Shown here in pieces: positions 6,001-53,287 of a DNA stretch of 64,000 bases (positions are counted from its first letter, which is position 1; each line of letters opens with the position of its first letter). The stretch is from an uncultured Candidatus Saccharibacteria bacterium (GTDB lineage: Bacteria > Patescibacteriota > Saccharimonadia > Saccharimonadales > CAIOMD01). The DNA lies in the NCBI GenBank assembly GCA_964566135.1, contig CAZMHM010000003.1:15856-79855 (forward strand). The letters are read 5' to 3'. Made by a program: the position numbers and the translations under genes. Below the pieces are notes generated by a model. The model ran no database searches. It was not told where the DNA came from and saw only the letters and a list, made by a program, of their open reading frames with translations.

Positions 6001-9000
6001 TTACCGTTAATAGCCCAACCTCACTAACCGTTACAACATCGCGCACTAAGGGTTCAGATAGTAATTATCGCATTATTCGTAATGCACTATCCGTAAATCA
6101 ATATGGTGAGACAACGTTCCAATCGAATAGTTCAGGTAAATCTTTTGCCGTATTAGATAGTGCGAGTAACCCAGTATTAAGTGTTGATACATCATCGAGT
6201 GCTACTACCGGATGGAGCTCTAACTGGGTGATTAATAACGGTGTCAATAACAAGCAAAATGAACTAGAAAACCCAGGGTTTGAAGCAGCGACAGAAGATG
6301 GTCAATATTCAGGTTGGGCAGGGTCAGGTGTATTGCAAAACAATGCTACAAATGCACGTACGGGTAATCATGTGATGGAGCTCCCATCGGCAAATATGGA
6401 TATTTGCGAAGCAAAAGTTCACCCGGTACAACCAGGCGATATAATTTACTACGAAGGCTATGTTAAACGATCTGTTGGCGGTGGTGGTACTGGCGGTTTT
6501 TATGTTAAAGTACTCGATAAAGACTTTACTAATCCGGCCTTTAGTTCTGATACATGGACAGACCCAGGCACAAGTTATACACTACGCGCCAATTCATACA
6601 CCGTACCTGCAGGTAAATATTACGTAGAAATGTGTAACACTACCAGTGCTGGTACAACCGGTTCTTGGTTCTTTGACGATTTATATATGACCATTTCTAC
6701 CGAAAGAAGTTGGGTAACATATCGTAATACCTCAAACTCAACAACAGCATTCCAGATTCAAAATGCGGCAGGTACTTCAGTGCTCAATGTCGATACAACA
6801 AATGGCAACTTACTCATAAATGGCGTTACACCGACTACCTTTACTGGTAGCTTTGCTACGACGGGTGCGCACTGGTCGTTATCAAAGCAGGCTGACTATA
6901 TTTATTCAGTTCGCGATGGTACTTCGTTCCAGATTATTGATGCAACCAATCCGGCAAGTATGACAAATATTAGCACTACAACGGTATCGGGTGCTAACCG
7001 TCTACAGTCTATTCAGATTGCGGGCAAGTATGCATATATTTCAGACTTTGGTACTACGCAGTTCTATGTCTACGATGTCACTAACGCCGCCGCACCTACA
7101 CTTGTAAAAACGGTCACAACAGCAAGTAACCTTACCGATCTGTATGTATCGGGTAAAATTGGTTTCGCCGTTGGTACAAACAGACATATATATGCATATG
7201 ACTTAACGAACCCACTTAACCCACTACTGTTAAGCGATACTACCACGCCATTTACAACCGGTAGCGTGCTTGGCATTAAGACACTCGGTAATTACCTATA
7301 CATAACTGGTAACGTGAGCGGTACGGGTAAACTATTTATCTATGATTGGTCTAACTCTAGCTCATTAATACTTAAGAATGGTGCAGGCGCCTCAACTAAC
7401 ACGACGTCACCGCAGGGTCTTACGGTTGTTGGCCGTTATGCATATGTATACAACCGCACAACCGCAGCTTCGTTTGAAATCTTTGACATCAGTAATCCAT
7501 CAACTACCTCAGCACATGTCGGCACGCTTAACCTCACTGCTGGTGGTGCCACAAGCGCGAGCAGCCCACAGATGGTTGTCGTGCAAGGCAGTACAGCGTA
7601 TATAACGAATAACTCGGCAAGTAAGCTCGAAATTGTTGATGTAACTACGCCATCAGCACCATCGCTACTTGGTTCGGTCACAACCGACACAAACCCAGTG
7701 AGTATTGCAGTCGATGGCCGTTATGCCTATGTGGAATCCTATGGCTCAAGTACTATAAAGTCATATAACATTGGTGGTGCATATATTCAGGCTATCGATG
7801 CGGGCAATACAGCAGTAACTGATTTGCAGGTGTACAATAACGCAACAATTGCGGGTAACCTAACTGTGTATACCGGCTTAAATGTTGGCCAATCGCTTAA
7901 CGTTAACGAAGACCTTGGCGTAGCAGGGGATGTAAAATTCCAGAATTCATCTAACTCTAGTACCGCATTTGCGGTACAATCTGCTAGCGGTTATAACCAG
8001 ATTCTTGTAAATAACAGTGACACTAATAATAATCAGGTTGCAAACCCTAGCGCCGAACAAAATACAACTGGCTGGAATCCACGCACGGGCACAACACTTA
8101 CAAGGGACACGACAGATGAGTATGCCGGTGTTGCAAGCTTTAAACTAGCCAATACAGCTACCGCCAACGCCGGCATGAATCTACCGATTGTGCTAACGGC
8201 GAACACATATTACACTATGTCGTTTATGGTTAAGACCAGTAGTGCTTCGTCGACGCTTAGTTATGGTTATGCAGCTGATGGAGCAACCGAGACGCTTGCA
8301 ACATGTAACCCTGGCAGTAACCAGCCTTGTTTTGTTTCATCAGTTGCGATGGGCACTGGATGGACACGAACAATCATCGGGATTACAACTCCGAATACTG
8401 TTAACGGTGGCGCATACTTCTTTATTAAGCAGAGCGATGCGGTAGCGCGAAACATCTGGATTGATGCTGTTCGTATAGAGTCCGGTGGTTCTGGCCCACA
8501 ATACAGAGAGGGTGTCGTTAGCCTCGGTAGCAACGCAACGCTAGTAGGCGTAAATACCACCGCACCAATTGCTAATCTACAAGTGCAACAATCCTCATCA
8601 ACCTTTGGTCTAATCGTAAAGGGTAACGGTGAAAACTTCTTAGGAAAACAAGCGGTGTTCTCTATACAAGATAGTATAGGAACGAGTCATGTACAGTTTG
8701 ATGAGTTGCCTAACGAAACAAGAATTTACGGCGGTAGTGACTTCTGGGGCTCAGCAGGCTTATGGGTTGGTCCGCAGTTCACTAATGCGGTTGGCCTTAG
8801 GATTCAGGGTCAATCTGGCCAAACCGCAAATCTGTTTGACGTAATGGACAGCAGCACTAACAGGCTTGTCGTCATTAGTGGCTCGGGCGGGCTTGGCGCA
8901 GGGGGCGTCTCTATACCTAGCACGACTCTCAATGCGAGCCCCACATATTACAGTACGGGTACTGCCTACCAAAGTGGTACAACCATTACTGGTGTTGGGA

Positions 9001-11654
9001 CGACCTGGACAAGCGCTATGGTGGGCATGGTCTTTGAATTTACTGCATTAAACGGCACGACAGGCATAGTTCCGGTAACGATTACTGCGGTTAATAGCGC
9101 CACAAGCCTTACCGTTAACACAAGTCAAACATTCTCGAGCAACCCTGGCGCAGGGTATAGGATTCATACTCCTGGGTTAGTGGTCGACGCTTCGGGTAAC
9201 ACCGATATGCAGGTAACAAGTGCAACTGCGCTACAAGTAAAAAATGCCGCAAATTCTCAAGTTCTTACCGTCGATACTTCTGGAGGAAATTTGATTGCAA
9301 ATGGTGATTTCGAAACTTCTACCACTGCTGGCTGGGCGGCGCTACCTGCGGGGGCAACATCGCTCGCTACCAATACGGCCAATATTATGAGTGGCACTAC
9401 GAGCCTAGCCTTTACAAACCCAGCAACCGCAAATACGGGCGTTAAGGCTACGGCATTTACTCAGACTGTAGCTGCCGGTACGTATACTCTTAGCTTCAAT
9501 GTAAAGACTGCGACTGCGCTGGCGTATAACAGTATTATTGCTGGCTACAACCAGGGTGCTGCTGACGTACCATGTACTACCAATGTTGTTGCGCAGGGTG
9601 GAAACATGCCAACGGGCATCTTTACGCAGGTTAACTGTACGTTTACATCGACAGGTAACCTATCGTATGTATATATTCATCAAGGCGCTAGCACTACTGC
9701 GCGCACCATATATATTGACGGAGTGCGACTTGAACAGTCGAGTACTAGCGGTGGTTTCTCCGCGGGTGCAGTAGGAATCAACACATCAACCGGCTTTAAT
9801 AATCGTAATCAGCTAGTGGTTAATACGCCAACCACTGTAGCCTCTAATGCGGCAGTTGTTGTTCAAGCTAATTCAGCCGATCAAATAGGGTTAGTGTTGC
9901 AAGCGGCTTTAGCATCGTCTGCCAACGCATTCCAATATCGCCGCTACGACGGTACGGTTATGTATGCAGTAACGGGTGGTGATGGCCGCATGATTACAGG
10001 TGGTCCATCGAGTGTTGCAGTGTTAGGTGCAGATTCAGTTCAGCTAACATCATATGTACCTGGTTCAGCAGATTATGTTGGCCTTATGGTATCGGGCGCA
10101 GATTCACAAACAAAAGATTTGGTTAATGTTGGCAACCGTCGTAACGCTGGTGCATACACTAGCGTCTTCAATATTGCAGCAGAAGGTGCAACATTATTTA
10201 AGAACAGAGTTAATTCAACAACTGGATTCCAAATTCAAAATGCATCAGGCACGTCACTTCTAAAAGTTAATACAGGAGCAGGGACAGAGAACGTTGACTT
10301 AGGCGGTAGTCTTACTATGGGCTATTTCAGCGATATTCGGGCTGCAGAAACAGGCACGGCAACCTATACGGTGTCCACGGCAGCCTCGGCATATTATGTA
10401 TCGGCAAATAGCACTACTACGGCTGCATCGTTCACTACAACCTTTAATATCACAGGTGCTTCTACAACTGACGGTACCATTGTGGTTATTAAAGCTTCGT
10501 CTATAAAAGGTGTTACCGCGGCTAATCAGATACACACGGTGGCTGTGCAACTTAATGGTTCGACGGTAGCGACACTTGCTCCGGCGACCCAAACAACTGC
10601 TGTTACGGTAACTCGTACTATGATATTCATGCGCATGAACGGTGTGTGGTCATTAATAGGCCAGCCAGCTACCGCAAACGTCGCTAATACTTCTAACTCT
10701 GCAACAACAGCTGACTTTGCAGAATGGATTCGTTATAGTGGCAATACGGCGCCACAACCAGGTGAGATACTAGTTGTCGGTGACGATCCTACAAGCGCAA
10801 AAGTATCGACCACACCATACGATAAACAAATAATTGGTGTTGTATCTACGAGCCCATACGAAGTTGCTGGGGCGGAAGACAGCCATTCAGTGATAATTGC
10901 ACTTACCGGCCGTGTACCGGTTAAAGTAAGTCTCGAAAACGGTCCTATCCAAAAGGGTGATTCGCTTACCTCGTCATCTACGCCTGGTGTAGCCATGAAG
11001 GCCGTTAAAGCAGGTAAGATAATCGGAACAGCACTCGCAGACTATGATGGCACGCAGGTTGACAACAAGATTGATGTGCAACTTGGTGTAAGTTACGACG
11101 AGCCAGCATCTGTAAGCAGCAGCCTACAGGGCTCCGACTTAACAATAAGTGGCGCTGCTACCGTTAATGGCAATATGACCATTGGCGCTAACTTATATGT
11201 ATCAGGTACGGCAACGTTTAATGACTTGGTTGTAAATGGTAATGCAATATTTAATGGCAATCTTACGGTGCAAAATATCTCAGTCAAAAACATCACTATC
11301 AATGGGCACATTATTACTGCCGGCAACACACCTACAATTGCAGCTGGCGCTGCTGCGGGCGTAGCCGATACGCTTAATAATATTCCAGCGCCTACGGCTT
11401 CTGTAGACGGTAACGACACCGCCGGAACAATCACCGTTGTAGCTGGTGCAAACACCGTTGCAGGCGACTTTGTAGAGGTAACCTTTAACGCTGCGTTTAC
11501 TAAGACGCCTAAGGTTATCCTAAATGCTGGTAACGAATATGCGGCAAACCTTAAGTTCTACCGTGATGCCGATACAGGCAAGTTCCGCATTAAGCTGCCT
11601 CAGGCGCCTACTGCAGGCCAAACATATACATTTGATTACATGGTGGTGCAATAA
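1..11654 (+). CDS. Giant T/G/A/N/S-rich cell-surface fibre protein, paralog A; the 5' end lies upstream of the window (3,883 codons visible)
   Basis: Frame 3 is open from nt 3 to the TAA at 11652-11654; the ORF track starts only at an internal GTG at 243. nt 1-157 are 149/157 identical to 13531-13687, about 190 codons inside paralog B, so the true start is off-window. Modules read from the translation: TxxIG repeats, two GGxGG blocks, 17-aa NTAxG repeats, three CBM-like modules (NPGFE..GW / NPSAE..GW / NGDFE..GW, each ending [FIW][FIY]D), an LVIVD-type region, and a C-terminal module shared with B. Confidence 0.9.
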   Translation, partial: QTTNGAGTLSSTLAINTPTVGNQTFQIPDQAAAGTYTICIQNATGCGFLKRGAQDTSTLGTLTAGQYLYGFSNTSATASGVLSLTNGATSTGNTLYVTSSGNPAAGSALIVANAATGVTGNLIDLQLNAVSKFSVNQAGNVIAAGTITSGAVNGLTLTSAADGFTIAGGTASRTLTVTGANITIGSTITPTAAGALAVSANGANNLSLDGGTTGAVNINGSSSGDVNIAGGSGTTGCTVTNSTGALTCTAGITSNNNTINSQTLSSTALTFTGANPTISPSTANTGITLQANGTGALTLGGISTASNTINVGTAAGNTFTQTVNIGTSATAGSTTNVNIGSTVAGTTTLQGLLAISGGTNNGVYYRNSSGNVVNTAAGTTGQCLQGVTGAAPSWSACLSAEADTLATVTSRGATTATATSFTGGLTVSNGAATAIAVTSNATVPTADQLSITNTGSTGVTTAGVNGLSIAYKGGAAAVEAAGARVDLTPGTTSGGTWSGVRVVPNATGAVAGVTENALKIDTLTTPGAGTENAISVGTGWDAVLSYNGTVLINGTGIVQSAAVSGSYTGITGVGTLTVGTWNGTQIGATYGGTGQTTTTAGDLLVGAAGNTWNKVAAVASGSCLISQGVGVAPIWGACGATNIVQAPTNTAQNTITPTTTGTVGLTVNSTSFATGGATALIVNQTATAATAVDGVDININNATNPVTNGLLINKTGAGTITSLLNLTQGAGTTTNGIIFNGTITNDITTAAARALTVVTGTTGALSLDTGTTGAINIGTNVNNKTIQIGAGTGTAASSTVNIANSASAAQTVTIGSTNGASALTLQGGTGNINLSTNSSSASVIIKTLTNSTTAFRILDASNNQIFNVDTTTVNGTGAFKLGNSAYVQATNSSGLVQKLYMTDGFSYISFDNQSGPGGIELGGNVGVNGVIAGTTITATGGPIAAQAGNGTNAKPVLRVFPASVNGGDTTGTTGQTAGSGSGITLQTSTGGAATGASGANFGGAGGAFSVLTANGGAATSGTGGAGGDISLTAGNGGNGSTTGGRGGNITLAAGTVGTGGTPTQGKVIVKNIANSTTAFQVQNASSTPVLAVDTTNQTVKVRSLSDAASLGANLFANSCTGANWSGANPYTHTAGSTTVLTCTVPSITAGATYEVAYTTAGTTAGEYFTPSMGGSNGPRIYGDVSGTVVISTTTTANMTIAPTSAQTGSFTITSVKLVTNASTPLTVLDSTGTTRLEVRATTYNTALGLSSLQSNTTGSRNTAVGNISLQSNTTGSDNAAFGYAALQYNTTGFNNTATGSFALYSNSTGSNNTANGQNALSNNSSGYNNAAFGSAALQTNNVGIQNTGIGMSALAANTSGSNNTAVGYASQSGGTTTSNNTSVGYNSLQNATGSYNTAVGTSTFTGTISGVNNTALGFNAGTSNGGFTQVTNVDNATAIGAYALVQASNSLVLGQIPTPTKVGIGTTIPLNTFSVSPVDYAVGTISQTASATVVGSGTTFTAAMVGDQLIYADGVTDTVTGFTDATHITVTTSRTHSSSAYRLHYIGLQVQSNGTTYAQGNSATQLQVKNGQGVAVLNVDTANGQLQLGNYNGGTNAVAGKLVLNNTTNANGLTIVAGATASNYTLTLPTSAGSSNDCLKNSGTAGILTFGACASGITLQAAYNSSAGATPSIAVNSTNKAVVVQNSVTSSIAAGNEYFGVRAAGASDVVYGNSIFTVNSGGVGINIGGTGNPVTSYDLSFGQGANRTIGVQVQGTAATAGNNLTVSAGQGNTTGAGGVLILRGGTGGATGAGGDVTITGGTGGATSGNGGNVTLVAGTMTSGTAGSVILKPGVGGDKAGAISIQNAAGSSILGVNTSTGVVSIDNGDAAISLHDAASPNTWLIDNWAGGDLSIGIGGNDDFRLDGKYAYLGSSDLGSKLMFGDKQNNAYGNVMVGEYGNTDTDIAQLFGFSGTNLSYGYGTGSISQSGTTTVTGVGTSFDLSMEGATLAYADGTLDTVVTVNSPTSLTVTTSRTKGSDSNYRIIRNALSVNQYGETTFQSNSSGKSFAVLDSASNPVLSVDTSSSATTGWSSNWVINNGVNNKQNELENPGFEAATEDGQYSGWAGSGVLQNNATNARTGNHVMELPSANMDICEAKVHPVQPGDIIYYEGYVKRSVGGGGTGGFYVKVLDKDFTNPAFSSDTWTDPGTSYTLRANSYTVPAGKYYVEMCNTTSAGTTGSWFFDDLYMTISTERSWVTYRNTSNSTTAFQIQNAAGTSVLNVDTTNGNLLINGVTPTTFTGSFATTGAHWSLSKQADYIYSVRDGTSFQIIDATNPASMTNISTTTVSGANRLQSIQIAGKYAYISDFGTTQFYVYDVTNAAAPTLVKTVTTASNLTDLYVSGKIGFAVGTNRHIYAYDLTNPLNPLLLSDTTTPFTTGSVLGIKTLGNYLYITGNVSGTGKLFIYDWSNSSSLILKNGAGASTNTTSPQGLTVVGRYAYVYNRTTAASFEIFDISNPSTTSAHVGTLNLTAGGATSASSPQMVVVQGSTAYITNNSASKLEIVDVTTPSAPSLLGSVTTDTNPVSIAVDGRYAYVESYGSSTIKSYNIGGAYIQAIDAGNTAVTDLQVYNNATIAGNLTVYTGLNVGQSLNVNEDLGVAGDVKFQNSSNSSTAFAVQSASGYNQILVNNSDTNNNQVANPSAEQNTTGWNPRTGTTLTRDTTDEYAGVASFKLANTATANAGMNLPIVLTANTYYTMSFMVKTSSASSTLSYGYAADGATETLATCNPGSNQPCFVSSVAMGTGWTRTIIGITTPNTVNGGAYFFIKQSDAVARNIWIDAVRIESGGSGPQYREGVVSLGSNATLVGVNTTAPIANLQVQQSSSTFGLIVKGNGENFLGKQAVFSIQDSIGTSHVQFDELPNETRIYGGSDFWGSAGLWVGPQFTNAVGLRIQGQSGQTANLFDVMDSSTNRLVVISGSGGLGAGGVSIPSTTLNASPTYYSTGTAYQSGTTITGVGTTWTSAMVGMVFEFTALNGTTGIVPVTITAVNSATSLTVNTSQTFSSNPGAGYRIHTPGLVVDASGNTDMQVTSATALQVKNAANSQVLTVDTSGGNLIANGDFETSTTAGWAALPAGATSLATNTANIMSGTTSLAFTNPATANTGVKATAFTQTVAAGTYTLSFNVKTATALAYNSIIAGYNQGAADVPCTTNVVAQGGNMPTGIFTQVNCTFTSTGNLSYVYIHQGASTTARTIYIDGVRLEQSSTSGGFSAGAVGINTSTGFNNRNQLVVNTPTTVASNAAVVVQANSADQIGLVLQAALASSANAFQYRRYDGTVMYAVTGGDGRMITGGPSSVAVLGADSVQLTSYVPGSADYVGLMVSGADSQTKDLVNVGNRRNAGAYTSVFNIAAEGATLFKNRVNSTTGFQIQNASGTSLLKVNTGAGTENVDLGGSLTMGYFSDIRAAETGTATYTVSTAASAYYVSANSTTTAASFTTTFNITGASTTDGTIVVIKASSIKGVTAANQIHTVAVQLNGSTVATLAPATQTTAVTVTRTMIFMRMNGVWSLIGQPATANVANTSNSATTADFAEWIRYSGNTAPQPGEILVVGDDPTSAKVSTTPYDKQIIGVVSTSPYEVAGAEDSHSVIIALTGRVPVKVSLENGPIQKGDSLTSSSTPGVAMKAVKAGKIIGTALADYDGTQVDNKIDVQLGVSYDEPASVSSSLQGSDLTISGAATVNGNMTIGANLYVSGTATFNDLVVNGNAIFNGNLTVQNISVKNITINGHIITAGNTPTIAAGAAAGVADTLNNIPAPTASVDGNDTAGTITVVAGANTVAGDFVEVTFNAAFTKTPKVILNAGNEYAANLKFYRDADTGKFRIKLPQAPTAGQTYTFDYMVVQ
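3729..4364 (+). repeat. About 12 tandem 17-aa (51-nt) repeats NNTAxGxxALxxNTTGx inside paralog A (YadA-head/Hep_Hag-like or tail-fibre-like)
   Basis: Translation reads YNTALGLSSLQSNTTGS / RNTAVGNISLQSNTTGS / DNAAFGYAALQYNTTGF / NNTATGSFALYSNSTGS / NNTANGQNALSNNSSGY ... ending NATAIGAYALVQASNSLVLG. The period was counted by hand. Confidence 0.7.
6880..7790 (+). other. LVIVD-type beta-propeller region of paralog A (approximate bounds)
   Basis: Recurrent blades of the form YAY[IV]xD...[FL]x[IV][FYV]D[IV][ST]NPxxP, e.g. KYAYISDFGTTQFYVYDVTNAAAPTLV, RYAYVYNRTTAASFEIFDISNPS, TAYITNNSASKLEIVDVTTPSAPSLLG. Paralogous to 17900-18830 in B. Confidence 0.55.
11124..11651 (+). other. C-terminal ~175-aa module shared by paralogs A and B (beta-helix-like NGN repeats plus a terminal small beta-sandwich with an H-type-lectin-like pattern)
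   Basis: A reads ...FNGNLTVQNISVKNITINGHIITAGNTPT...VDGNDTAGTITVVAGANTVAGDFVEVTFNAAFTKTPKVILN...YTFDYMVVQ. This aligns colinearly with B: ...FNGNLTVQNIQVANITINGHIITAGNAPT...IDGNDTAGSITIVAGASTTAGDMANVTFTTTFGKAPRIILT...YTYNYQIMQ. The lectin-like label rests only on the VxFxxxFxxxPxV pattern. Confidence 0.7.
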
Positions 11655-11718
11655 CATGAGCTATCAATATCAATCACACCTTACATCGTTTATCACAATA
11701 TCATCCTCTAACTTCGCT

Positions 11719-11753
11719 GCTCTTATTGGTGGCCATTCGCCACCAATAAGAGC
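11719..11753 (+). other. Perfect 15-bp stem / 5-nt loop hairpin 65 nt after the stop of A, with no U-tract
   Basis: GCTCTTATTGGTGGC-cattc-GCCACCAATAAGAGC. An analogous U-less hairpin follows gene C at 53288-53314. Confidence 0.6.
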
Positions 11754-11907
11754 GCTTAGGGTAGCTGTGTAATCTCGCGGATACACAGGCCCAGGATGCA
11801 AAAAACAAAAACATTTTTGCTACCTGCAAACATACTCGTATGGCCACTTGCGCGTTTGGTATACCGCACTCGGGGTAAAGGGCTAGCAACAAATACAAAA
11901 TCCAACC

Positions 11908-11936
11908 AAAGCCGCACAGCAATGTGCGGCTTTTTG
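11908..11936 (+). terminator. Rho-independent terminator
   Basis: aaaGCCGCACA-gcaa-TGTGCGGCttttt: 8-bp GC-rich stem with A/U extension, followed by a T5 run. Confidence 0.75.
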
Positions 11937-11993
11937 TACCTATAAATTTATTCAAATAATCGTTTTTTATTTTTTATCTTTAATGATACTTTT

Positions 11994-12434
11994 ATTACTT
12001 TGCCGAGGCAAAGTAATAGCAAACCGACTGGGCGCAAATCAAAAAGACTCTTATCTGATAGTAATAATCACAAAGCACAAAAAGGACTTCACTCCGTTCG
12101 GCCCCTTCAAATACCAATAGAACTCTGGGGCTAACTTTTTGCCTTAGCTTTGATGATTTAACTCGTCTCTAAATCAGTATTAGATTTGATGCCCAGACTC
12201 ATTAATAACAAGATGTTTCTGCGATTGATGTCGGGCATCAGGGATACCATGGGCAGGATTGCCAAACTTACTAACTTCAAAGCAAAAAGGCTAGTCTAAA
12301 ACTCTACTCAAATATAATGAGTTTTAGACCGACTGCAAGGAGTCCTTTCTGCAGTTGTAAGGCTTGGCAAAAACCTGCACCACGGGATATATGCGCCCGA
12401 GAGTTTTTGTATTACTTTTTGGGTAAAAAGTAAT
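11994..12434 (+). repeat. Structured intergenic repeat family, copy 1 (variant 3' half), bounded by two ATTACTTT..AAAGTAAT hairpins
   Basis: Left hairpin 11994-12017 (ATTACTTTGC-cgag-GCAAAGTAAT). Long imperfect inverted repeat 12028-12196 (CTGGGCGCAAATC...CAAAAAG / CTTTTTG...GATTTGATGCCCAG). Right hairpin 12411-12434 (ATTACTTTTT-gggt-AAAAAGTAAT). The first ~210 nt align with copies at 21514 and 44840. Confidence 0.7.
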
Positions 12435-12704
12435 AAAGAAAGACCTGCTTTTAAATAGCCAGAAACTAATCAGTTTTGGTATGCAGCTTGCTTTAACCCT
12501 GTGGAAAACCTCCATACCCTCAAACCTACTCATTGTAAGTATCTCTACGTTTTGGTTATGTTGTTTTAGTTGTGTTGCGATAGCGCAGTGTGACGATTCT
12601 AGATTGAAGGGAGGTAAAATGTTGTTAATATAACAATATTTTGTGATATTGTTTTGCATGGGTTTGGTGCGTTTATTTGTATACATATATATACATAAAA
12701 CGTC

Positions 12705-12740: not shown

Positions 12741-12965
12741 AGTTTGTCAAAACGAACATTCAAAGAGCAGATAAAGACGTTAAAAACAAAACAAGATTGT
12801 CCGCAGCGAGTTCATCGTCACAAAATTATGTGGCCGTAAACTTGAATAAATCTTGAGCAAAAAATCTTAAAAAAACACAAGAGATTTGCAGTAGCAACAA
12901 ACATGCTCGGCTCGTAAAAATACAAGACAAACCGCAGAAATTAAAACAAAGGTAACAATTCACAC
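12741..12965 (+). promoter_or_regulatory. Conserved ~225-nt 5' leader of giant gene B (paralogous to 45741-45962)
   Basis: AGTTTGTCAAAACGAACATTCAAAGAGCA...GACGTTAAAAACAAAACAAGAT is near-identical in both leaders. The shared blocks ATGCTCGGCTCGTAAA and ACAAGACAAACCGCA..AAAACAAAGG lie just before a GTG start. The leader is A/C-rich with only a weak AAGG ~15 nt upstream. Confidence 0.6.
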
Positions 12966-15900
12966 GTGAGTAGACTGTTCCGCACCAGTCCCATACTTTC
13001 ACGCACCCATAAAACCTCTGATGTAACAGTGGTACGGGTGCTCTTTGTCGTGTTTGCACTTGCGTTGTTTGTTGCAACGTTCGCTATATATCCTTATACG
13101 CGTGACGCAGGTACGCGCACAGCTAAGGCTGCAACTAACTCAACCCTCAACTTCCAAGCTCGTATCCTCACATCTGGTGGAGCAGTTGTATCAGATGGTA
13201 GCTACAACATTCGTTTCAAGATTTACACTGGTGGTACTAGTGGTGGCCCAGGCGGTATTGGTGCCGCTAACGCTGGTACACTACTTTGGACAGAAACCTG
13301 GCAGAACTCTAACAGCCAAGGTATTGTTACTAAGAACGGCTACATCAGTGCAGCCCTTGGTAGCATTACTGCCTTTAGTGGTATTAACTGGGATCAAGAG
13401 CTTTGGGTAACCATGGACGTTGGTGGTACTAGCGTTGGTGCATCACCAACTTACGACGGTGAAATGCTCCAAACCGGCAACAAGCGCATGAAGGTAACCG
13501 GTGTACCATACGCACTGGCTGCTGGCACTTTGCAAACCACCAATGGAGCCGGTACCCTCAGTAGCACCCTTGCTATTAACACTCCAACGGTTGGTAACCA
13601 AACCTTCCAAATCCCTGACCAAGCCGCTGCTGGTACGTACACAATTTGTATTCAGAACGCGACGGGTTGCGGTTTCCTTAAACGAGGAACAGCCGACACT
13701 TCATCGGGTGCAGCTGGTGCTGGTTACCTGTATGGTTTTACCAACTCATCTAGTGCACTCACTGGCGGTGTTCTGCAACTAGATAACGGTACCAACACTG
13801 GTAACACTCTCTATGTCGCATCATCTGGCAACCCAGCAGCCGGTAAAGCACTCATCGTTGCTAACGCCGCTACTGGTGTTACTGGTAACCTCATTGATCT
13901 CCAGCTCAATGCCGTCAGCAAGTTTAGTGTGAACCAGGCAGGTAATGTCATAGCTGCTGGCACAATTACCAGCGGTGCAGTGAACGGGCTAACCCTCACC
14001 AGTGCCGCTGATGGCTTTACCATAGCTGGTGGTACTACCAGCCGAACTTTAACCGTCACTGGCGCCAGCATCACTATTGGTAGCACCATTACGCCAACTG
14101 CAGCAGGAGCACTTAGCGTGACATCCAATGGTGCTAACGCATTAACACTCGATAGCGGCGGTGCTGCAAATGTAAACATCGGTACTGGTGCCGCCTCCAA
14201 AACCATCCAAATTGGCACCACTGCCGTAAACACTGGTAACACCCAAGCTATTGGCATTGGTAACACAGCAGCAGCCGGTACTACCAACGTCACAATTGGT
14301 GCAACCACTGGTGCTACTGGTGGTACCACCACCATCCAATCGCTTGGTACCCTAGCACTCGGTAACAGCATCAGCCCAACCGTTACCTTACAGTCAACTG
14401 TTGGTGGCACCATTAACCTTGGTACTGCAACTACCACCGGCACTATTAGTCTTGGTGGCACAAGTACCAGTGGCACTATTACCCTTGGTCAATCCAGTGG
14501 TGTTAACAACACCATTAACATTGGTGCAAACATAGCTAACACCTTCACCCAAACCATTAACATTGGTACCAGTGCAACAGGTACTACCAACACAACCATT
14601 GGTTCGGCAACTGCTGGTACTACTATCCTCCAAGGCACTACCCGCTTAAGCGCACTGACCACCAACGGTTTTGTTAAAACAACTGGTGCAAACGGAACCC
14701 TCGCAGTCAGCACTACGGTTGCGCTTGGTAGTGAGGTGAGTGGTATCCTTGGCGCAGCTAATGGCGGTACTGGCAATGGCTTTACCGCATTCAGTGGCCC
14801 AACAACAGCGACTAAGACCTTCGCACTACCTGATGTTTCAACAACTATCTGTACTACCAACAGTGTTTGTGCTGGGTACGCACCAAGTGCAACTAATGGC
14901 TATGTACAGTTGGCGCCGGCGTCAATCCAAGCTGATAGCACTACCAATACTAGTATCTTCCTGAATAAAACAGGTGCAAGTGGCAGTCTGCTAGATTTGC
15001 GAAACAACAACACGAGCATATTTTCTCTTGGATATTCGGGTGCCCTTACAGTACTACCAGTTCAGCCAGCGGCTCTTGCCGCTAATGGTACCTCCCAAGG
15101 CACCACGGTTAACTTTAATGGTGGAATAGGTGGCAACACTACTGGTACAACTGGCCAAACTGCGGGTCAGGGTGGCAATCTCTTCTTTAGTGGCGGTAAT
15201 GGTGGTACTGCCGGAGTAGGTTCTACGAATGGTAGGGGTGGTGATATTACACTACAGGGTGGTACTGCTGGTGCTGGAGCAGGTGGCGCAAACTTTAGTG
15301 GTAACGTACTGCTACAACCAAATACTGGCTTTAGTGTTGGCGTAGGTACTCCAACACCCGCTAACCAGTTCTCGGTCAATGCGCTTACGACTGCAGATGC
15401 TAATTATCGCGTTGCAATCTCTACTCGTGCAACAACCGATAAAGGCCTACTAGTTCAAGGAATCCTTAACCAATCTGGTGATTTGTTCCAGGCCCAAACC
15501 AGCACAGGTGCAACCCTCGCATCTATTGGCGCAACTGGCGCAACCGCATTTAAGAACTCGGTCGATTCTAGTAGTGCATTCCAGATTCAGACCGCAGCAG
15601 GTGTTAATGCAGTTAATCTTAATAATACATACGATACCAACAACCTATTTTCTGCTAACCCTAGTTTCGAGGTAAACACCAATGGTTGGGCTGCAGAAGC
15701 AGCGGGCGGCTCTATAGCTCGCACCACGACAGCGGGCCAGTTTTATTATGGTGATGCAGGTGGTGTGGTCACTACAACTACTACGGCTGGTACGGGTGTT
15801 CGCTATAACCTTACCCTTACAGACGCCACTGTATACAACCTGACTATTCCAATAAAAGGAGCAACGGCATTTAGCACACTACAAATTGGTTATGCATCTA

Positions 15901-18900
15901 CTGGCTTGGTTGGTAGCGAGGGCACTGCTGGCCAGAACTGTACTGCCCTAAATGTAACTACAGGCTGGAGCTTTGTAAGCTGTACTATCACGACAACAAC
16001 GCATTCTGGTACGCCGTATATATATATAAAGCAAACCGATGCCGGCACGGCGCGAACATTCTATATTGATGGCGTAATTTTAGCTCCTGCTGCATTTGGC
16101 AATCTTGGATTTACCGAATCGCATCTATCATTACAAGACACCACATTGGCAATAAATACTACTACGGATACACAGGCAGCGTTAACAATTCAACAGCGCA
16201 TCAGCCAGGGTGGCCTATTGCTTAAGGGTAGCGGCGAAGTAAATATCTTCCAGCAACCACTGCTTGATGTGCAGTCTTCGAGCGGTAGCCCGTTACTACG
16301 AGTGTTAGATACTGTCAATACCGTTCGAGCAACTGGTGGTAGTAGCTTGTACCACAGCGCAGCCTTTACGTCAGTATCTGGTTCGGATGGGTTCCAGTCT
16401 TTGAATGTGTACGGTAACTCTGCAACGCAAACAGCAGATTTGCTGCGAGTACAAAAGAACGCAGGTGCAACCACCGGTTTAGTTGTAACTGCAGCTGGCC
16501 GCCTTGGTATTGGTACGCCGGTGGTGAATACCAATGATGTATCGACAGTGAATTATGATTTAGCATTCGGTCAAGGCGCTGATAGAACTATTGGCGTTGA
16601 AACACAATTAACCGCCGCTACTGCAGGAAACAATCTAACAATTAGTTCTGGCCAAGGCAATACAACCGGGGCAGGTGGAAATATAGCACTGCAAGCTGGT
16701 GGCAGCGGTACTGGTGCTACTGGTAATGGTGGTGGAATTACGCTTACCGCAGGTACTGCGTTGTCAACCGATGGTAACGGCGGTGATATAACGCTAGTTG
16801 CTGGTGCCAAATCCGGCACGGGTACAGGCGGAAAGATAGTGGTTAAACCTGGCACACTTGGCAATCGCATCGACTTCTTCCAATTCCAAAACCAAGGTGG
16901 GTTCCAAGTCGCAAACGTTGACACCCAAAACAACATCTTCAATTTCGGACAGGGTAGTCTCATAGACGGTAAAATTCGCTTCTACAATGCTAGCAGTGGC
17001 AACTTTGTAACAATGGATGCATCAACTGCAGCAGCAAGCTATGTACTACGTCTACCAACTACAGCTGGTGCTGCATCAGATTGTCTTAAGAACTCTGGTA
17101 CTGCTGGTGTGCTTACATTTGGTAGTTGTGCAGCAGCAAGCTCGTTGCAATCTGCATACGATGCTGATGTTGATGGTTCGGACACGGTTATTGCATTAAC
17201 AGCCGCTGACGACTCGCTTATTCTACGTAACCCTGCAGCCGGTGGCACTGATAGTACATATATATTAACGCTCGATCAATTAGCAACAACAGCAAAAGGT
17301 GGTTTAAGCGTACAAAGTGCTGGTACTGGCAACTTGTTGCTTGTTACAGACACTACTGCAACCGCACGTGATGTCCTAACTATTGCAGATGGCGGTGCTA
17401 CTACATTCAGAAATCAAACTAATACTGGGGCGGCATTCCAGGTGCAAAACGCTGCAGGCAGTAGCATTATCAATGTTGGAAGTTCCACTCCACAATTTAC
17501 CCTAAGTGATGGGGCGGTCGCAGGCGCTGGTAATTTAGTACTTACAACTAACGTTGCAAGTGGCGAAGATGCAGGAGATGTAATATTTAACAACAATGCC
17601 GGTACCCAAAAGGCTCGCATATGGTCATCTAGTGCAGCGGGAGTGAGCGGTCTATTCCTAAGCTCTGGTGATCTTACTGCAGATATTTCAATCGACAATT
17701 CGGGTAACACAACCATTGCATCAAACCTCACAGCGAATGGATCATCTCTCTTCAAGAATGGGGCCGATTCTACGACCGCCTTCCAAATCCAAAATGCAGC
17801 CGGCGCAAACATACTCAATGTAAATACCACTGCTGGTAACCTTCTTATTAACGGTGTAGTGCCAGCTACCTTTACGGGTAGTGTCGCTACAAGCCTTACG
17901 CCATTCGCAATCGAAAAAGTTGGCGACTTAATCTATGTAGTAGGTGCAGCTAACAACTTACAAATATTTGACGCTTCTAACCCCGCCTTAGTAACCCTTA
18001 AGACAACATTTGCCGTAACAGGTGCAAGTGCGCTTGAATCAGTTGTTGTACGTGGCAATTATGCATACATCTCGGACTTTACGGCCACTAAGTTCTTTAT
18101 TGTTGACATATCAAACACAAATGCGCCTGTACTTGTAAAAACTGTGACAACTGCCAGCAGTATTGTTGATCTTAATGTTTATGGTAACTATGCATATTTG
18201 TTTACCAACGCAAATACCATTGTTATATACGACATCACAAACCCAAATAACCCTGTTCTTAAAAGCACCACCGCCACTAGCATTACTACCTTTAGTGGTG
18301 CCAGCGGTATCGTGGTAAAGGGGAGCTACTTATATATATCAGGTACTAATGGCACTAATGGAAAGCTATACATATACGACATTAGCAATCCAAGCTTACC
18401 TGTGCTTAAGAATGGCGCTGGTGCCACAACCAACTCAACCTCTCCAGCCGGTATGAGTGTCGTTGGTAGCTATGCGTACATATATAACCGTACACTTACT
18501 GCATCACTTGAAATCTTTGACATATCTAATGCCACAACTACCGCTGCGCATGTTGGTACAGTAAATCTTACCGCAGGTGGCACAATTGCTGGCTGGGGTC
18601 CGTCTTCGGTGTCGGTACAAGGTAATAGAGCGTATGTAACTAATAACTCGGCAAACAGGCTCGAAATTATTGATATTTCGGCTGTTACAGCGCCTACAAT
18701 CAGCGGTTCCGTTTCTACAGATACTCGCCCGGCGGGAGTTAAAGTAGACGGTTTGTATGCCTATGTACTTACCTACACGAGTGCCACAATTAAGACTTAT
18801 AACATTGGTGGTGCATATGCTCAGACTCTCGAAGCCGGTAATCTCAACGTGACTGATTTGCAAGTAGGCAACAGCGCTACCTTTAATGCTAACGCCAGTA

Positions 18901-21506
18901 TCTTTGGAAGCTTAAATGTTGGTCAAAACCTGCAAGTCAATGAAGATTTGGGCGTGGCTGGCAATGCAAAGTTTCAGAATACTGCCAATAATACTAATGC
19001 GTTCAAGATACAAAATACAGCAGGCGCTAATCTGATTAATGTAGACACAATATCAAATAATAATAATCTAATCACTAACCCAAGCGCAGAAGTTGATACT
19101 TCTGGCTGGAATACAAATGCGCCGCGAACAGGCACTGCAATATCACGAACAACAACGGCAGCAAACGTGTATTACGGTGTTGGTGCAATTGATGCAAACG
19201 TAACAACTGGTTCTGTAAATTCTGGCGTAAACTATCCAATAACACTTACAGCGGGTGTTGCGTATAACGCTACTGTCATGATGAAGCTAACGACTAATGG
19301 TAACGTAACGTTTGGTTATGCGCATAACGGTACAGAAGGCACGTACCAAAACAATGCATGTTATGGTGGCAACGCTGGTACGGGATGGTATATTTGTAGC
19401 CTTACATTTACGCCAGCTACGGTTAGCGGCTCGCCGTACTTCTTTATCAAGCAAAACGATTCTGTGGTCCGTCATATCTACATTGATGGTTTATTTATCG
19501 CCCCTGTAGCGGGCTGGACGGGTGGCTATCAAGAAGGTCAAATAAATCTTGGTAATTCGGCCACTCCAGTTTATGTTGGTGGTTCACCCTCAAATCCAAT
19601 TGTAAATGGGATTGGTACTCTTTTTGTTCAGCAGGTACGCGATAAAGCAGGATTGCAGGTTCGTGGCACTCCAGAAAATGATTTGCTTAGACAGCCTATT
19701 TTAAACGTAGAAACAAGCGGACAATTCTCGCTCTTGAATGTCAACGAAGCACAGGCAGTAACGCAAATTCAGGGTGGTTCGGCATTTTGGGGTAGCGCCG
19801 CCTTAAGGGTCTTGAGTAATGATGCTGGTGCAACGGCACTACGAGTTATGGCTGCGCCGAGCCAAACAGGCAATGTATTTGAGGTAACGGACAATAGTGG
19901 CACTGATATGTTTACAGTAGGTTCCGCTGGCAGTACTCTTGTTAAGACATTAACTAATTCAACAACAGCTTTCCAAGTACAGAATTTGGGAGGTACCGCT
20001 GCCTTAACGGTTGATACTACCACTAATGACACTACTCTAAGTGGAGATCTAAGCATTGGTTCGGGGGGTACGCTCGGCCAAGTTATATTTAATAACGGAA
20101 CAGCCAACCTGCTCAGTTATCCAAACGTTGGTGTAGCTGCGCCTACATTCACAACTAGAAGTGCTGGCACTAAGATATTGCTCTATAACGGTTTAACCGG
20201 CAGCGCTACCGATTATGCAATTGGTATTGCAAATAACACGCTCTGGAATAGTGTACCAGCCTCTACGAATCAATTTGCCTGGTACGTAGGCACCACTGCG
20301 GTCGCAACACTAAATGGGTCCGGATGGTTTAATGTTGCTGGCACGGGTACTGCAAACGATGCACCGCTCCATATTCAAAATAGTGGAAACGCATGGACTA
20401 CTGCAACTTGGAAAAAATCTATTCGACTTGATGGTGGTGCGAACGCCATTGAATTTAGTGCAGGTACGGCAAATCCGACTGGTATTGGTGGAACTACAAA
20501 CGGTGTTTATATCTGGGAAGCTGCCGGTGAAACGGGTGCTTCTGGGCTTACCTATGTCATGCGCGCATCGTCTTCATTAGGGTTTTCTGCATATATTGCT
20601 AACGGAGCCGGTGCTACTGCGGTTTGTGCCTCTTCTACTGTAGCAGGTAACAGAACCTTCACTGCAGCTGCAACCGTATGTACTAACCCATCATCAATAC
20701 GACTAAAAGAAAACGTAACTGATATGTCTGATGCGCTAAATATTTTGGGCCAACTACGACCAGTTGCGTTTAACTGGAAGGCAAGCACTGGAATAACTGC
20801 AATTAATGGCGGCTCAGCCGATTATGGTTTCATTGCAGAAGAAGTAAATAATGTTATACCAGAACTAGTCTCTCGTGATGAAAATGGCCAAATACAAGGA
20901 CTCAACTATTCTGGCTTTGTGCCATTCCTAGCTCGTGCTATTCAGCAACAACAAGCAGAAATCACTGCGCTACAAGGTAACGCAGCCGGCATTACTGGTG
21001 GCGGTACTGTAAACGGTAATTTGGCAATCACTGGCAGTCTAAATGTCACCGGCCCAACAACGTTGGATGGCGGGCTAACCGTAAATGGCAATGCAGTCTT
21101 TAACGGAAACCTTACTGTGCAAAACATCCAAGTCGCTAATATCACTATCAATGGGCACATTATTACCGCTGGTAACGCACCAACCGCTGCAGTTGAAACT
21201 GCTGCTGGCATAGCTGATACCCAAAACAATATTGCTGCTCCAGTGGTAACAATAGATGGTAATGATACCGCTGGATCCATTACAATTGTTGCCGGTGCAA
21301 GTACTACAGCGGGTGACATGGCCAACGTGACTTTTACTACTACATTCGGTAAAGCGCCTCGCATTATCTTAACCCCAGTAGGTTCAGACAGCGCTAAGCT
21401 ACAAACCTACGTAAATGGTACCAGTGCTGCTGGCTTTAAACTTGGTACAAATGTTGCACCAGCCGCTGGCACAACGTACACGTATAACTACCAGATAATG
21501 CAATAA
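12966..21506 (+). CDS. Giant cell-surface fibre protein, paralog B (2,846 aa) with a phage-type S74 domain near the C-terminus
   Basis: GTG start conserved with gene C (MSRLFRTSP..). TM/signal-anchor VLFVVFALALFVATFAIY, then NSTLNFQARIL...WTETW...VTGVPYALAAG, an N-terminal domain shared with C and E. Also two GGxGG blocks, two CBM-like modules (15650-16090, 19070-19510), an LVIVD region, S74, and the shared C-terminal module. Confidence 0.93.
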   Translation: MSRLFRTSPILSRTHKTSDVTVVRVLFVVFALALFVATFAIYPYTRDAGTRTAKAATNSTLNFQARILTSGGAVVSDGSYNIRFKIYTGGTSGGPGGIGAANAGTLLWTETWQNSNSQGIVTKNGYISAALGSITAFSGINWDQELWVTMDVGGTSVGASPTYDGEMLQTGNKRMKVTGVPYALAAGTLQTTNGAGTLSSTLAINTPTVGNQTFQIPDQAAAGTYTICIQNATGCGFLKRGTADTSSGAAGAGYLYGFTNSSSALTGGVLQLDNGTNTGNTLYVASSGNPAAGKALIVANAATGVTGNLIDLQLNAVSKFSVNQAGNVIAAGTITSGAVNGLTLTSAADGFTIAGGTTSRTLTVTGASITIGSTITPTAAGALSVTSNGANALTLDSGGAANVNIGTGAASKTIQIGTTAVNTGNTQAIGIGNTAAAGTTNVTIGATTGATGGTTTIQSLGTLALGNSISPTVTLQSTVGGTINLGTATTTGTISLGGTSTSGTITLGQSSGVNNTINIGANIANTFTQTINIGTSATGTTNTTIGSATAGTTILQGTTRLSALTTNGFVKTTGANGTLAVSTTVALGSEVSGILGAANGGTGNGFTAFSGPTTATKTFALPDVSTTICTTNSVCAGYAPSATNGYVQLAPASIQADSTTNTSIFLNKTGASGSLLDLRNNNTSIFSLGYSGALTVLPVQPAALAANGTSQGTTVNFNGGIGGNTTGTTGQTAGQGGNLFFSGGNGGTAGVGSTNGRGGDITLQGGTAGAGAGGANFSGNVLLQPNTGFSVGVGTPTPANQFSVNALTTADANYRVAISTRATTDKGLLVQGILNQSGDLFQAQTSTGATLASIGATGATAFKNSVDSSSAFQIQTAAGVNAVNLNNTYDTNNLFSANPSFEVNTNGWAAEAAGGSIARTTTAGQFYYGDAGGVVTTTTTAGTGVRYNLTLTDATVYNLTIPIKGATAFSTLQIGYASTGLVGSEGTAGQNCTALNVTTGWSFVSCTITTTTHSGTPYIYIKQTDAGTARTFYIDGVILAPAAFGNLGFTESHLSLQDTTLAINTTTDTQAALTIQQRISQGGLLLKGSGEVNIFQQPLLDVQSSSGSPLLRVLDTVNTVRATGGSSLYHSAAFTSVSGSDGFQSLNVYGNSATQTADLLRVQKNAGATTGLVVTAAGRLGIGTPVVNTNDVSTVNYDLAFGQGADRTIGVETQLTAATAGNNLTISSGQGNTTGAGGNIALQAGGSGTGATGNGGGITLTAGTALSTDGNGGDITLVAGAKSGTGTGGKIVVKPGTLGNRIDFFQFQNQGGFQVANVDTQNNIFNFGQGSLIDGKIRFYNASSGNFVTMDASTAAASYVLRLPTTAGAASDCLKNSGTAGVLTFGSCAAASSLQSAYDADVDGSDTVIALTAADDSLILRNPAAGGTDSTYILTLDQLATTAKGGLSVQSAGTGNLLLVTDTTATARDVLTIADGGATTFRNQTNTGAAFQVQNAAGSSIINVGSSTPQFTLSDGAVAGAGNLVLTTNVASGEDAGDVIFNNNAGTQKARIWSSSAAGVSGLFLSSGDLTADISIDNSGNTTIASNLTANGSSLFKNGADSTTAFQIQNAAGANILNVNTTAGNLLINGVVPATFTGSVATSLTPFAIEKVGDLIYVVGAANNLQIFDASNPALVTLKTTFAVTGASALESVVVRGNYAYISDFTATKFFIVDISNTNAPVLVKTVTTASSIVDLNVYGNYAYLFTNANTIVIYDITNPNNPVLKSTTATSITTFSGASGIVVKGSYLYISGTNGTNGKLYIYDISNPSLPVLKNGAGATTNSTSPAGMSVVGSYAYIYNRTLTASLEIFDISNATTTAAHVGTVNLTAGGTIAGWGPSSVSVQGNRAYVTNNSANRLEIIDISAVTAPTISGSVSTDTRPAGVKVDGLYAYVLTYTSATIKTYNIGGAYAQTLEAGNLNVTDLQVGNSATFNANASIFGSLNVGQNLQVNEDLGVAGNAKFQNTANNTNAFKIQNTAGANLINVDTISNNNNLITNPSAEVDTSGWNTNAPRTGTAISRTTTAANVYYGVGAIDANVTTGSVNSGVNYPITLTAGVAYNATVMMKLTTNGNVTFGYAHNGTEGTYQNNACYGGNAGTGWYICSLTFTPATVSGSPYFFIKQNDSVVRHIYIDGLFIAPVAGWTGGYQEGQINLGNSATPVYVGGSPSNPIVNGIGTLFVQQVRDKAGLQVRGTPENDLLRQPILNVETSGQFSLLNVNEAQAVTQIQGGSAFWGSAALRVLSNDAGATALRVMAAPSQTGNVFEVTDNSGTDMFTVGSAGSTLVKTLTNSTTAFQVQNLGGTAALTVDTTTNDTTLSGDLSIGSGGTLGQVIFNNGTANLLSYPNVGVAAPTFTTRSAGTKILLYNGLTGSATDYAIGIANNTLWNSVPASTNQFAWYVGTTAVATLNGSGWFNVAGTGTANDAPLHIQNSGNAWTTATWKKSIRLDGGANAIEFSAGTANPTGIGGTTNGVYIWEAAGETGASGLTYVMRASSSLGFSAYIANGAGATAVCASSTVAGNRTFTAAATVCTNPSSIRLKENVTDMSDALNILGQLRPVAFNWKASTGITAINGGSADYGFIAEEVNNVIPELVSRDENGQIQGLNYSGFVPFLARAIQQQQAEITALQGNAAGITGGGTVNGNLAITGSLNVTGPTTLDGGLTVNGNAVFNGNLTVQNIQVANITINGHIITAGNAPTAAVETAAGIADTQNNIAAPVVTIDGNDTAGSITIVAGASTTAGDMANVTFTTTFGKAPRIILTPVGSDSAKLQTYVNGTSAAGFKLGTNVAPAAGTTYTYNYQIMQ
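17900..18830 (+). other. LVIVD-type beta-propeller region of paralog B (approximate bounds)
   Basis: NYAYISDFTATKFFIVDISNTNAPVLV, NYAYLFTNANTIVIYDITNPNNPVLKS, SYAYIYNRTLTASLEIFDISNATT, RAYVTNNSANRLEIIDISAVTAPTISG, ending YNIGGAYAQT exactly as A ends YNIGGAYIQA. Confidence 0.55.
20688..20975 (+). other. Peptidase S74-type intramolecular chaperone / autoprocessing domain (tailspike-endosialidase type) inside B
   Basis: PSSIRLKENVTDMSDALNILGQLRPVAFNWK...ADYGFIAEEVNNVIPELVSRDENGQIQGLNYSGFVPFLARAIQQQQAEITALQ. The Ser-x4-Lys dyad spacing (S-S-I-R-L-K), the GxIA[QE]EV..xxPxxV block and the terminal helical segment match the family pattern known from phage tail spikes and fibres. Confidence 0.75.
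20970..21503 (+). other. C-terminal module of B, homologous to 11124-11651 of A, lying downstream of the S74 domain
   Basis: Colinear alignment with the C-terminus of A (see feature 11124-11651). Confidence 0.7.
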
Positions 21507-21513
21507 CCTTGTT

Positions 21514-21964
21514 ATTACTTTTGCTGACAAAAGTAATGCAAAATCACTGGGCGCAAATCAAAAAGACTCTTAGCTGATAGTAATAATCACAAAGCGCAAA
21601 AAGAACTCGCTATGCTCGGCTTCGCCAAATTCTAGCGGAAGGCTCAGCTGGCTTTTTGCCTTGGCTTTGATGATTCTTACATCATCTAAATCAGTATTTG
21701 ATTTGATGCCCAGACCCTAAGAATAAAATATACCGTGATTAACGGGGTCCGGGGCATCGGCTTGCTATAGGGTAGATTTACGTCATAAGTAGCAGAGTAA
21801 TTACCGAGGACTCGTCCCAACGCTTCTTGGATATGTTTCGTTGGGACCGACCGTAGGGAGTTCCGCAGGTACTGCTAGTTATATGTAAAGATACACCTGC
21901 TAGCAAACGCAACCCCGGCAGTTTACCCAACTTTGCTGTCCAAAGTTGGAAAAGTGCGTTTGCT
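21514..21964 (+). repeat. Structured intergenic repeat family, copy 2 (candidate structured ncRNA or non-autonomous mobile element)
   Basis: Hairpin 21514-21537 (ATTACTTTTG-ctga-CAAAAGTAAT) starts 8 nt after the stop of B. Long inverted repeat 21547-21713. A multi-helix 3' module runs to ~21964, with stems GTCCCAACG/CGTTGGGAC, CCAACTTTG/CAAAGTTGG, AGCAAACGCA/TGCGTTTGCT and CCGGGG/CCCCGG. About 450 nt align with copy 3. Confidence 0.7.
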
Positions 21965-44787: not shown

Positions 44788-44839
44788 ATTACTCACTTCT
44801 TAGAATCATCTCTGCAATGCTGCAAATAATACTTCCTTT

Positions 44840-53216: not shown

Positions 53217-53287
53217 CATGACATACATTTTCCTATACCCACTAGCTACACATAAAATGACTCAAAATACTATTCTCTTTATGCATT

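Follow-up and report, generated by a model that had tools for sequence, protein, structure and literature searches.

What kind of element lies between the first two giant surface-protein genes of this DNA, and did it arrive there by moving? The window analysed here, the whole stretch of 64,000 nucleotides, comes from a Candidatus Saccharibacteria chromosome and carries mainly housekeeping genes (among them those for S1, IF-2, PriA, FtsA/FtsZ, NrdR, class II RNR, IleRS and L21), between which lie five giant surface-protein genes. These giant genes evolve fast and are thought to mediate host attachment. The genomes of Saccharibacteria and other CPR bacteria are tiny and tightly packed, and to our knowledge descriptions of noncoding elements in them are almost lacking. 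A sequence-only reading of the locus had proposed a noncoding repeat in three copies, the first of which would be bounded by twin hairpins, would carry a replaced 3′ half with its own stems, might be closed by a long-range pairing, and would recall REP/BIME elements and elements derived from IS200/IS605.

Architecture of the repeat

All of the motifs and stems that had been named in copy 1 are present, as follows (letters as read on the plus strand).

11994-12017: 5′ hairpin ATTACTTTG-ccgagg-CAAAGTAAT
12030-12036: GGGCGCA
12188-12194: GATGCCC, facing GGGCATC at 12233-12239
12296-12331: stem GTCTAAAACTC...GAGTTTTAGAC
12335-12356: stem CTGCAAGGA/TCCTTTCTGCAG
12392-12398: TGCGCCC
12411-12434: second end hairpin, ATTACTTTTT-gggt-AAAAAGTAAT

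When this region was compared with the window by blastn, two more copies were found, both on the plus strand (copy 2, 21512-21960; copy 3, 44838-45286), which are 81% identical to one another over 455 nt. The first ~240 nt of copy 1 had been described as common to all three, and blastn bears this out with a match of ~210-236 nt, at 80% identity to copy 2 and 77.5% to copy 3 (E about 1e-41); past about 12212, blastn detects no similarity of copy 1 to the other two. The MFE z-scores of the three regions against shuffled sequence are -7.6, -7.1 and -3.2, well outside what chance would give. The description of a noncoding, hairpin-bounded repeat is supported, as the regions share no ORF, match no Pfam family and have hairpins at both ends. 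Twin end hairpins are not, however, peculiar to copy 1: a hairpin built on the same ACTTT/AAAGT core closes the 3′ end of copies 2 and 3 as well (CCAACTTTG-ctgtc-CAAAGTTGG, around 21926-21949 and 45252-45275).

The organization behind these features emerged from structure-based models. RNAalifold, applied to the shared 5′ module (six sequences), gave a 10-bp hairpin, P1, and a second, rod-like and much longer hairpin, P2, which is uniformly 166-169 nt long and is closed by CTGGGC...GCCCAG. A covariance model, R1, built from these 5′ modules (the A units) only, recovers its six training modules and also the opposite strand of the 3′ half of each copy, with E-values on units from 1e-8 to 1e-60. 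Because R1 matches the minus strand of every 3′ half, what had been counted as one ~450-nt "copy" is in every case a doublet, in which a noncoding unit of ~215 nt is present twice, tail to tail and inverted. The order P1-P2, a spacer of about 22-25 nt, and P2′-P1′ is the same in all four doublets: the three in the window and one in a related contig, L016. When the model was rebuilt (R2), the 10 units scored 135-209 bits, with no other match in 205 kb and no additional unit among fetched loci that total about 285 kb. Six units lie in the window and four in three Saccharibacteria-type contigs, two of which hold singlets; the 10 stem from about four genomes and are mutually related. The units and the spacer of the first doublet are listed here.

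11986-12202, plus strand: unit 1A (R1 197.8 bits, E 2e-51; also fold, and blastn to 2A at 80% and 3A at 77.5%), with P1 at 11994-12017, an A-rich linker, and P2 at 12028-12196 with base CTGGGC...GCCCAG
12203-12224, no strand: spacer of doublet 1, AT-rich, alignable between doublets 1 and 3
12225-12442, minus strand: unit 1B, inverted, subfamily B1 (R1 68.2 bits, E 1.7e-16; R2 135 bits), with P1 at 12411-12434 and P2 at about 12231-12400
21506-21719, plus strand: unit 2A (R1 229.3 bits; fold)
21744-21957, minus strand: unit 2B, inverted, subfamily B2 (R1 35.9 bits, E 8.5e-8; R2 138 bits), with P1 CCAACTTTG..CAAAGTTGG around 21926-21949
44832-45044, plus strand: unit 3A (R1 208.4 bits)
45069-45283, minus strand: unit 3B, inverted, subfamily B2 (R1 42.7 bits, E 1.3e-9; R2 145 bits)
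L016 2980-3193, plus strand: R1 match (35.8 bits, E 9e-8)

This architecture accounts for what had been seen in copy 1. The twin end hairpins are the two P1s of the doublet. GATGCCC and GGGCATC are two conserved unit 3′ ends facing each other, and the spacer of doublet 1 is the loop of the GATGCCC(A)GAC / GTCGGGCATC hairpin that these two ends make. The GTCTAAAACTC stem is the apical helix of inverted unit 1B, and TGCGCCC is its P2 base (TCGGGCGCA on the minus strand). What had been listed as the stems of the 3′ half itself are thus P2 and P1 of an inverted unit, read antisense, and the idea that this half is an independent multi-branch RNA domain was dropped, superseded by the inverted-unit result. 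Nor was the half replaced by unrelated sequence, as it is a diverged P1+P2 unit in inverted orientation; what survives of the proposal is that 1B belongs to a different subfamily from 2B and 3B, from which it is as distant (34-39% identity in the model alignment) as from the A units (45-49%). To judge from these identities, the doublets are modular, since 1A pairs with a B subfamily unlike that of 2A and 3A. The complementarity of TGCGCCC to GGGCGCA is real and exists because the units are inverted homologues, but it is perfect in copy 1 only (elsewhere, CGCAACC, CACAGCC and CGCAGCC stand in the columns homologous to it), and the closure of the whole element that it had suggested is not conserved. 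The units of a doublet are predicted to fold independently: A and the reverse complement of B are only 52-57% identical, and the MFE pairs of the doublets fall mostly within one unit.

Fold and polarity of the unit

From 5′ to 3′, the unit consists of a U-rich lead-in, P1 (24 nt; a 10-bp AU-rich hairpin with core ACUUU/AAAGU), an A-rich linker, and P2 with its conserved base CUGGGC...GCCCAG. At the apex, the asymmetric region G-R-A-C-Y-C-N-Y-U-N4-UCGG, which has a conserved G.U pair, is invariant in 10/10 units. A units are 67-84% identical within the genome and 68-75% between contigs, so that those of other contigs are as alike as the paralogues of the window; A and B units are <50% identical. 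In the 10-unit alignment, standard pairs occupy 89% of cells, versus 70% in shuffles and 36-48% in slid controls, both sides have changed in 44 of 60 pairs, and 0 of 500 shuffles attain any observed pairing measure, numbers that are tilted towards structure, since the alignment was fitted to the model and the sequences are related. Two observations are independent of this bias. First, R1 detects the B units, none of which was in its training set. Second, whole helices have been swapped in L016, AAAUCAAA/UUUGAUUU becoming ACCAACC/GGUUGGU and GUCCCAAC/GUUGGGAC becoming GUCACAAC/GUUGUGAC. In addition, in the Saccharibacteria contig L009 the length of P2 is retained with an entirely different helix sequence. 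On the evidence of these models and comparisons, the fold of the unit is maintained by compensatory substitutions across subfamilies, and the best-supported description of the family is of structured intergenic repeats, restricted to one lineage, in which the unit is under selection for a single-stranded fold.

The polarity of the unit is less firmly assigned. One G.U pair is retained in 9/10 units, and cells with G.U outnumber those with A.C (42 versus 19). Folding energies of the plus and minus strands are equal, with no asymmetry, so the strand assignment rests on the asymmetric motif and the modest G.U excess. Polarity is, therefore, only moderate evidence that a sense-strand RNA or ssDNA is the acting form.

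Protein coding was considered and rejected: an antisense ORF of 48-49 codons is open in 2A and 3A but is broken or in another frame in 1A, L011, L016 and L009, it has no Pfam match, and no ORF is shared in frame or strand among the units. Among known RNAs, Rfam 15 at gathering level gave no match anywhere in the window, including to HEARO, omega-RNA or IS605-type families, permissive Rfam scans of the three regions (E up to 10) returned noise only, and the window contains no tRNA or tmRNA. Promoter and terminator scans found none associated with the units.

These searches bear on one alternative, in which the units are genes for a new ~215-nt structured RNA, with their own promoters, with doublets as convergent gene pairs, and with a protein partner that reads the apical motif. 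Preservation of the fold across subfamilies that are <50% identical, the fixed length of P2, the invariant single-stranded motif, the conserved G.U pair and the excess of G.U over A.C would all be expected of such genes, as would A units that differ no more across contigs than within the window (68-75%), and the lack of an Rfam match would simply make the family new. We nevertheless consider it unlikely, as no conserved promoter or terminator was found, the stop codon of the upstream gene marks the start of unit 2A, neither strand folds better than the other, very few genomes carry units, and close relatives lack them at the orthologous site described below.

Genomic setting, site occupancy and age

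The giant surface-protein genes and the doublets are interleaved in the window.

243-11654: giant surface-protein gene 1
12966-21506: giant gene 2
45963-53216: giant gene 3
53695-60123: giant gene 4
61369 to beyond 64000: giant gene 5
21985-22452, minus strand: gene for a 155-aa protein, neighbour of doublet 2

Copy 1 sits between giant genes 1 and 2. Copy 2 begins at the stop codon of giant gene 2 (ORF 12966..21506), facing the convergent 155-aa gene, and copy 3, which comes after rplU and two terminators, precedes giant gene 3 by about 680 nt. All three doublets of the window are thus <=1 kb from giant genes, downstream of genes 1 and 2 and upstream of genes 2 and 3; there is no unit in the spacer between giant genes 3 and 4.

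Some other features of these genes may be recorded here. At least some of the giant proteins have a Peptidase_S74-like region near a conserved C-terminus. The leader and N-terminal region of giant genes 2 and 3 are 80.5% identical (window 12741-13052 versus 45741-46049), the leader being A/C-rich. The 155-aa neighbour has no Pfam match and >1,300 homologues in Saccharibacteria/Patescibacteria, some of them named ImmA/IrrE-like metallopeptidase or zinc-ribbon protein, and its gene is syntenic with those for ROK kinase, S1 and IF-2.

Outside the window, pattern scans of genome and metagenome collections yielded one real match each, L009 and L011; the other nine loci are chance matches according to the covariance model. 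No match came from two viral-contig pattern scans or from blastn of phage and plasmid collections, and a phage or plasmid origin was set aside. L009 is a Saccharibacteria metagenome-assembled genome in which the unit is upstream of tRNA-Met. L011, an activated-sludge contig, has a single unit between response-regulator and hydrolase genes, antisense to both. Both are singlets. No further units came to light beside genes homologous to the 155-aa neighbour or to either terminus (C or N) of the giant genes.

L009 contains other structured sequence near its unit. A solo P1-like hairpin, TACTTTTTG-attcgg-CAAAAAGTA (6651-6674, minus strand), lies 86 nt upstream of the P1 of the unit and is the only solo hairpin seen outside the doublets. 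Downstream, at 6100-6380 on the minus strand, there are ~280 nt of further structure with a TCGGCC...GGCT apical-like motif, beyond which is the tRNA-Met (5977-6048). The extra structured sequence may be a degenerate second unit, though the model does not detect it.

One possibility is that the unit is a cis-regulatory UTR element of the giant surface-protein genes, controlling their expression or mRNA stability. The position of every window doublet within 1 kb of such a gene fits this reading, as does the fact that the element of doublet 2 has diverged along with the giant-gene allele beside it (see below). But the units of L011 and L009 adjoin unrelated genes, giant-gene homologues in L012, L013, L022, L028, L029 and L030 have no unit, nor has the spacer between giant genes 3 and 4, and strong terminators separate doublets 1 and 3 from the genes upstream. 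We therefore regard a UTR role tied to these genes as very unlikely.

Occupancy of the doublet-2 site could be followed in relatives, listed here with the identity of their counterpart of the 155-aa neighbour.

Window strain and L016-18 (contigs encoding an identical neighbour): doublet 2, that of L016-18 being about 75% identical to copy 2
L025 (neighbour 88% aa identity): 70-75-nt spacer with a simple hairpin
L021-23 (84% aa identity): 70-75-nt spacer with a simple hairpin
L020 (84% aa identity): a different structured region
L012, L024 and L026/27 (more distant neighbour): a small KGG-family gene

Comparison of orthologous loci had been put forward as a check on mobility, and presence/absence polymorphism is shown at this one orthologous site. 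Neither a duplication nor a clean empty site could be defined. The KGG-repeat (general stress protein-like) gene is at 11027-11224 in L012, 10523-10720 in L024 and 6931-7182 in L026.

A comparison of the window with L016 gives about 75% identity for the element and about 80% for the adjacent 3′ region of the giant gene, whereas the neighbouring housekeeping genes are 98-100% identical. From these identities, the divergence of the giant-gene 3′ region amid a conserved backbone suggests a hypervariable or recombining cassette. Because the element has diverged in step with that region, doublet 2 looks like part of the hypervariable block, long resident rather than recently inserted. The divergence among units is, likewise, far above that of an actively transposing family.

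The same block could be read in another way, with the element as a dsDNA site, either an operator or a site of recombination or cassette exchange, in which P1 is a palindromic protein-binding site bordering hypervariable surface-protein cassettes. P1 is indeed a near-perfect 10-bp palindrome, both strands fold equally well, and doublet 2 is at the edge of a block of ~80% identity inside a backbone that is 98-100% identical. Such a site would not be expected, however, to show compensatory changes along an imperfect rod of 75 bp, a conserved asymmetric motif or G.U pairs that are kept, and we think this reading most improbable.

A contig of SRR13208889 is 100% identical to the window. In independent public short-read assemblies, contig breaks fall on the doublets or close beside them: L019 begins at window 21963, L014 and L015 end at window 44705 and 44701, and the L009 contig ends about 95 nt upstream of its unit. 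These breaks at doublet edges suggest that the units or adjacent sequence are repeated elsewhere in those genomes, and we offer the repeat as an explanation for assembly breaks at these loci.

Known repeat systems and possible roles

Several known families resemble the Saccharibacteria repeat in part. In REP, REPIN and BIME systems, the unit is an imperfect palindrome of about 20-60 bp, the whole doublet forms one long hairpin, the genome has a RAYT (Y1 HUH) gene that is usually REP-flanked, and there are hundreds of near-identical copies per genome. REPINs and BIMEs lie outside genes, are noncoding and form hairpins; they are found singly or as inverted doublets around a short spacer, are believed to work as structures in ssDNA or mRNA, and differ in position from strain to strain (PMC3116915). 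Inverted doublets with a short spacer, here about 22-25 nt, are shared, and to this extent the likeness to REP/BIME elements that had been proposed is upheld in the layout. Membership in the REP/RAYT class is not supported: the unit is ~215 nt and has two distinct hairpins (P1 of 24 nt and P2 of 166-169 nt), the doublet is not one hairpin (its units are 52-57% complementary), the copies are highly diverged, and there is no RAYT in the window or the fetched loci. Copy number also looks low, with three doublets in 64 kb and few public matches; the hints on this point are those three doublets, the 67-84% identity of the A units, and the contig breaks, which hint at more copies.

ERIC, Correia and YPAL elements are intergenic imperfect palindromes of about 100-170 nt, co-transcribed with their neighbours, whose hairpins are kept by compensatory change and have effects at the RNA level, an example being the cutting of Correia hairpins by RNase III. 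The present unit does not resemble them in sequence, it adds a conserved 5′ hairpin, a polarity and an asymmetric apical motif, its host is a member of the Saccharibacteria (CPR), and no TA duplication or terminal inverted repeat of a parent IS was found. Non-autonomous IS200/IS605 derivatives (PATEs), with their omega/reRNAs, carry a hairpin close to each end and structured noncoding sequence in between, and lack a transposase in cis, all of which the Saccharibacteria doublet shares with PATEs. IS200/IS605 elements have, however, subterminal hairpins on one strand and ends that are not inverted repeats, and they insert 3′ of a conserved tetra- or pentanucleotide without duplication, whereas the hairpins of our doublets belong to inverted complete units, the window encodes no TnpA or TnpB (Pfam), Rfam has no HEARO/IS605-type match, and no conserved target motif is seen. 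Finally, MITEs have terminal inverted repeats, a target-site duplication and a parent IS with the same ends. The doublet amounts, in effect, to two long degenerate inverted ends, but neither a duplication nor a parent IS was found, and singlets exist. By analogy, then, the best reading is that REP doublets/BIMEs are the nearest match in organization, and ERIC/Correia-type elements the nearest in size and rod shape.

A further alternative is that the repeat is a non-autonomous element related to REP/RAYT or IS200/IS605 systems, moved as ssDNA by a Y1 HUH transposase that recognizes the P1 hairpins at its two ends. Every doublet has similar hairpins at both ends, the inverted doublets resemble REPINs (PMC3116915), selection apparently acts on a single-stranded fold, the site of doublet 2 is polymorphic for presence, and the L009 hairpins end in GTAG. 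Set against these points, the earlier statement that the window holds no transposase is confirmed by Pfam, and searches for Y1, RAYT and TnpB found none in the 64-kb window or in any fetched locus. The doublet flanks show neither a target-site duplication nor a conserved motif, and the left flanks, which are T-rich, lack a conserved target tetranucleotide. Moreover, a unit of 215 nt is far from a REP of 20-60 bp, the ends are inverted copies of whole units rather than the non-inverted ends of IS200/IS605, omega-RNA and HEARO are not matched in Rfam, and P1 is always accompanied by P2 within the window. Kinship with IS200/IS605, as once suggested, is accordingly not supported, and Y1-driven movement in general seems to us quite unlikely.

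The reading that we place first, at about an even chance of being right, is a small, lineage-restricted and previously undescribed family of dispersed structured intergenic repeats in a Candidatus Saccharibacteria clade, present as singlets and inverted doublets. It turns up in settings that have nothing in common, next to giant surface-protein genes, to rplU, to genes for a response regulator and a hydrolase, and to tRNA-Met. In such a family, the unit would act as a folded single strand in its sense orientation, either as read-through RNA or as ssDNA, and an inverted doublet would give one sense unit per DNA strand. A transcript arriving from either side would first gain P1 and the ~75-bp duplex, which could block 3′ exonucleases and serve as an RNase III substrate; the doublet might then be a transcript-end or insulator module, and the family would have been spread by an enzyme encoded elsewhere. 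That doublet 2 replaces the plain hairpin of relatives between convergent genes is consistent with a transcript-end module, but the L011 unit, antisense to both its neighbours, counts against a simple 3′-UTR role as a general rule.

A bolder and, in our judgment, unlikely proposal is that the unit represents a new functional RNA or ssDNA class of the Saccharibacteria lineage, with the apical motif (GRACYC-N-YU-N4-UCGG, with the G.U pair) and the 75-bp rod of fixed length being read by a dedicated protein. Such a protein could be a new enzyme of mobilization or recombination, or a regulator connected with the hypervariable loci of the giant surface proteins. For any of these readings, the result supplies a unit definition, a covariance model and coordinates for a structured repeat whose fold is kept at <50% identity. 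Were the repeat mobile, a lineage poor in transposases would have an undescribed mobilizing enzyme; were it an RNA, it would make up a large class of structured RNA that is new.

Giant genes are also followed by another noncoding region with structure, at 11655-11935 of the window and at 10470-10790 of L020, with partial instances at 44700-44790 and 53217-53620 of the window. The instances have no blastn similarity, and their likeness is at the motif level only: a conserved CATTCG-type loop hairpin with compensated stems, a hairpin loop CTCGCRGG, A/C-rich tracts, and a terminator with a CCAACCGG-type loop. In addition, a CTGTGGAAAA motif recurs at about 12500, 44576 and 45525.
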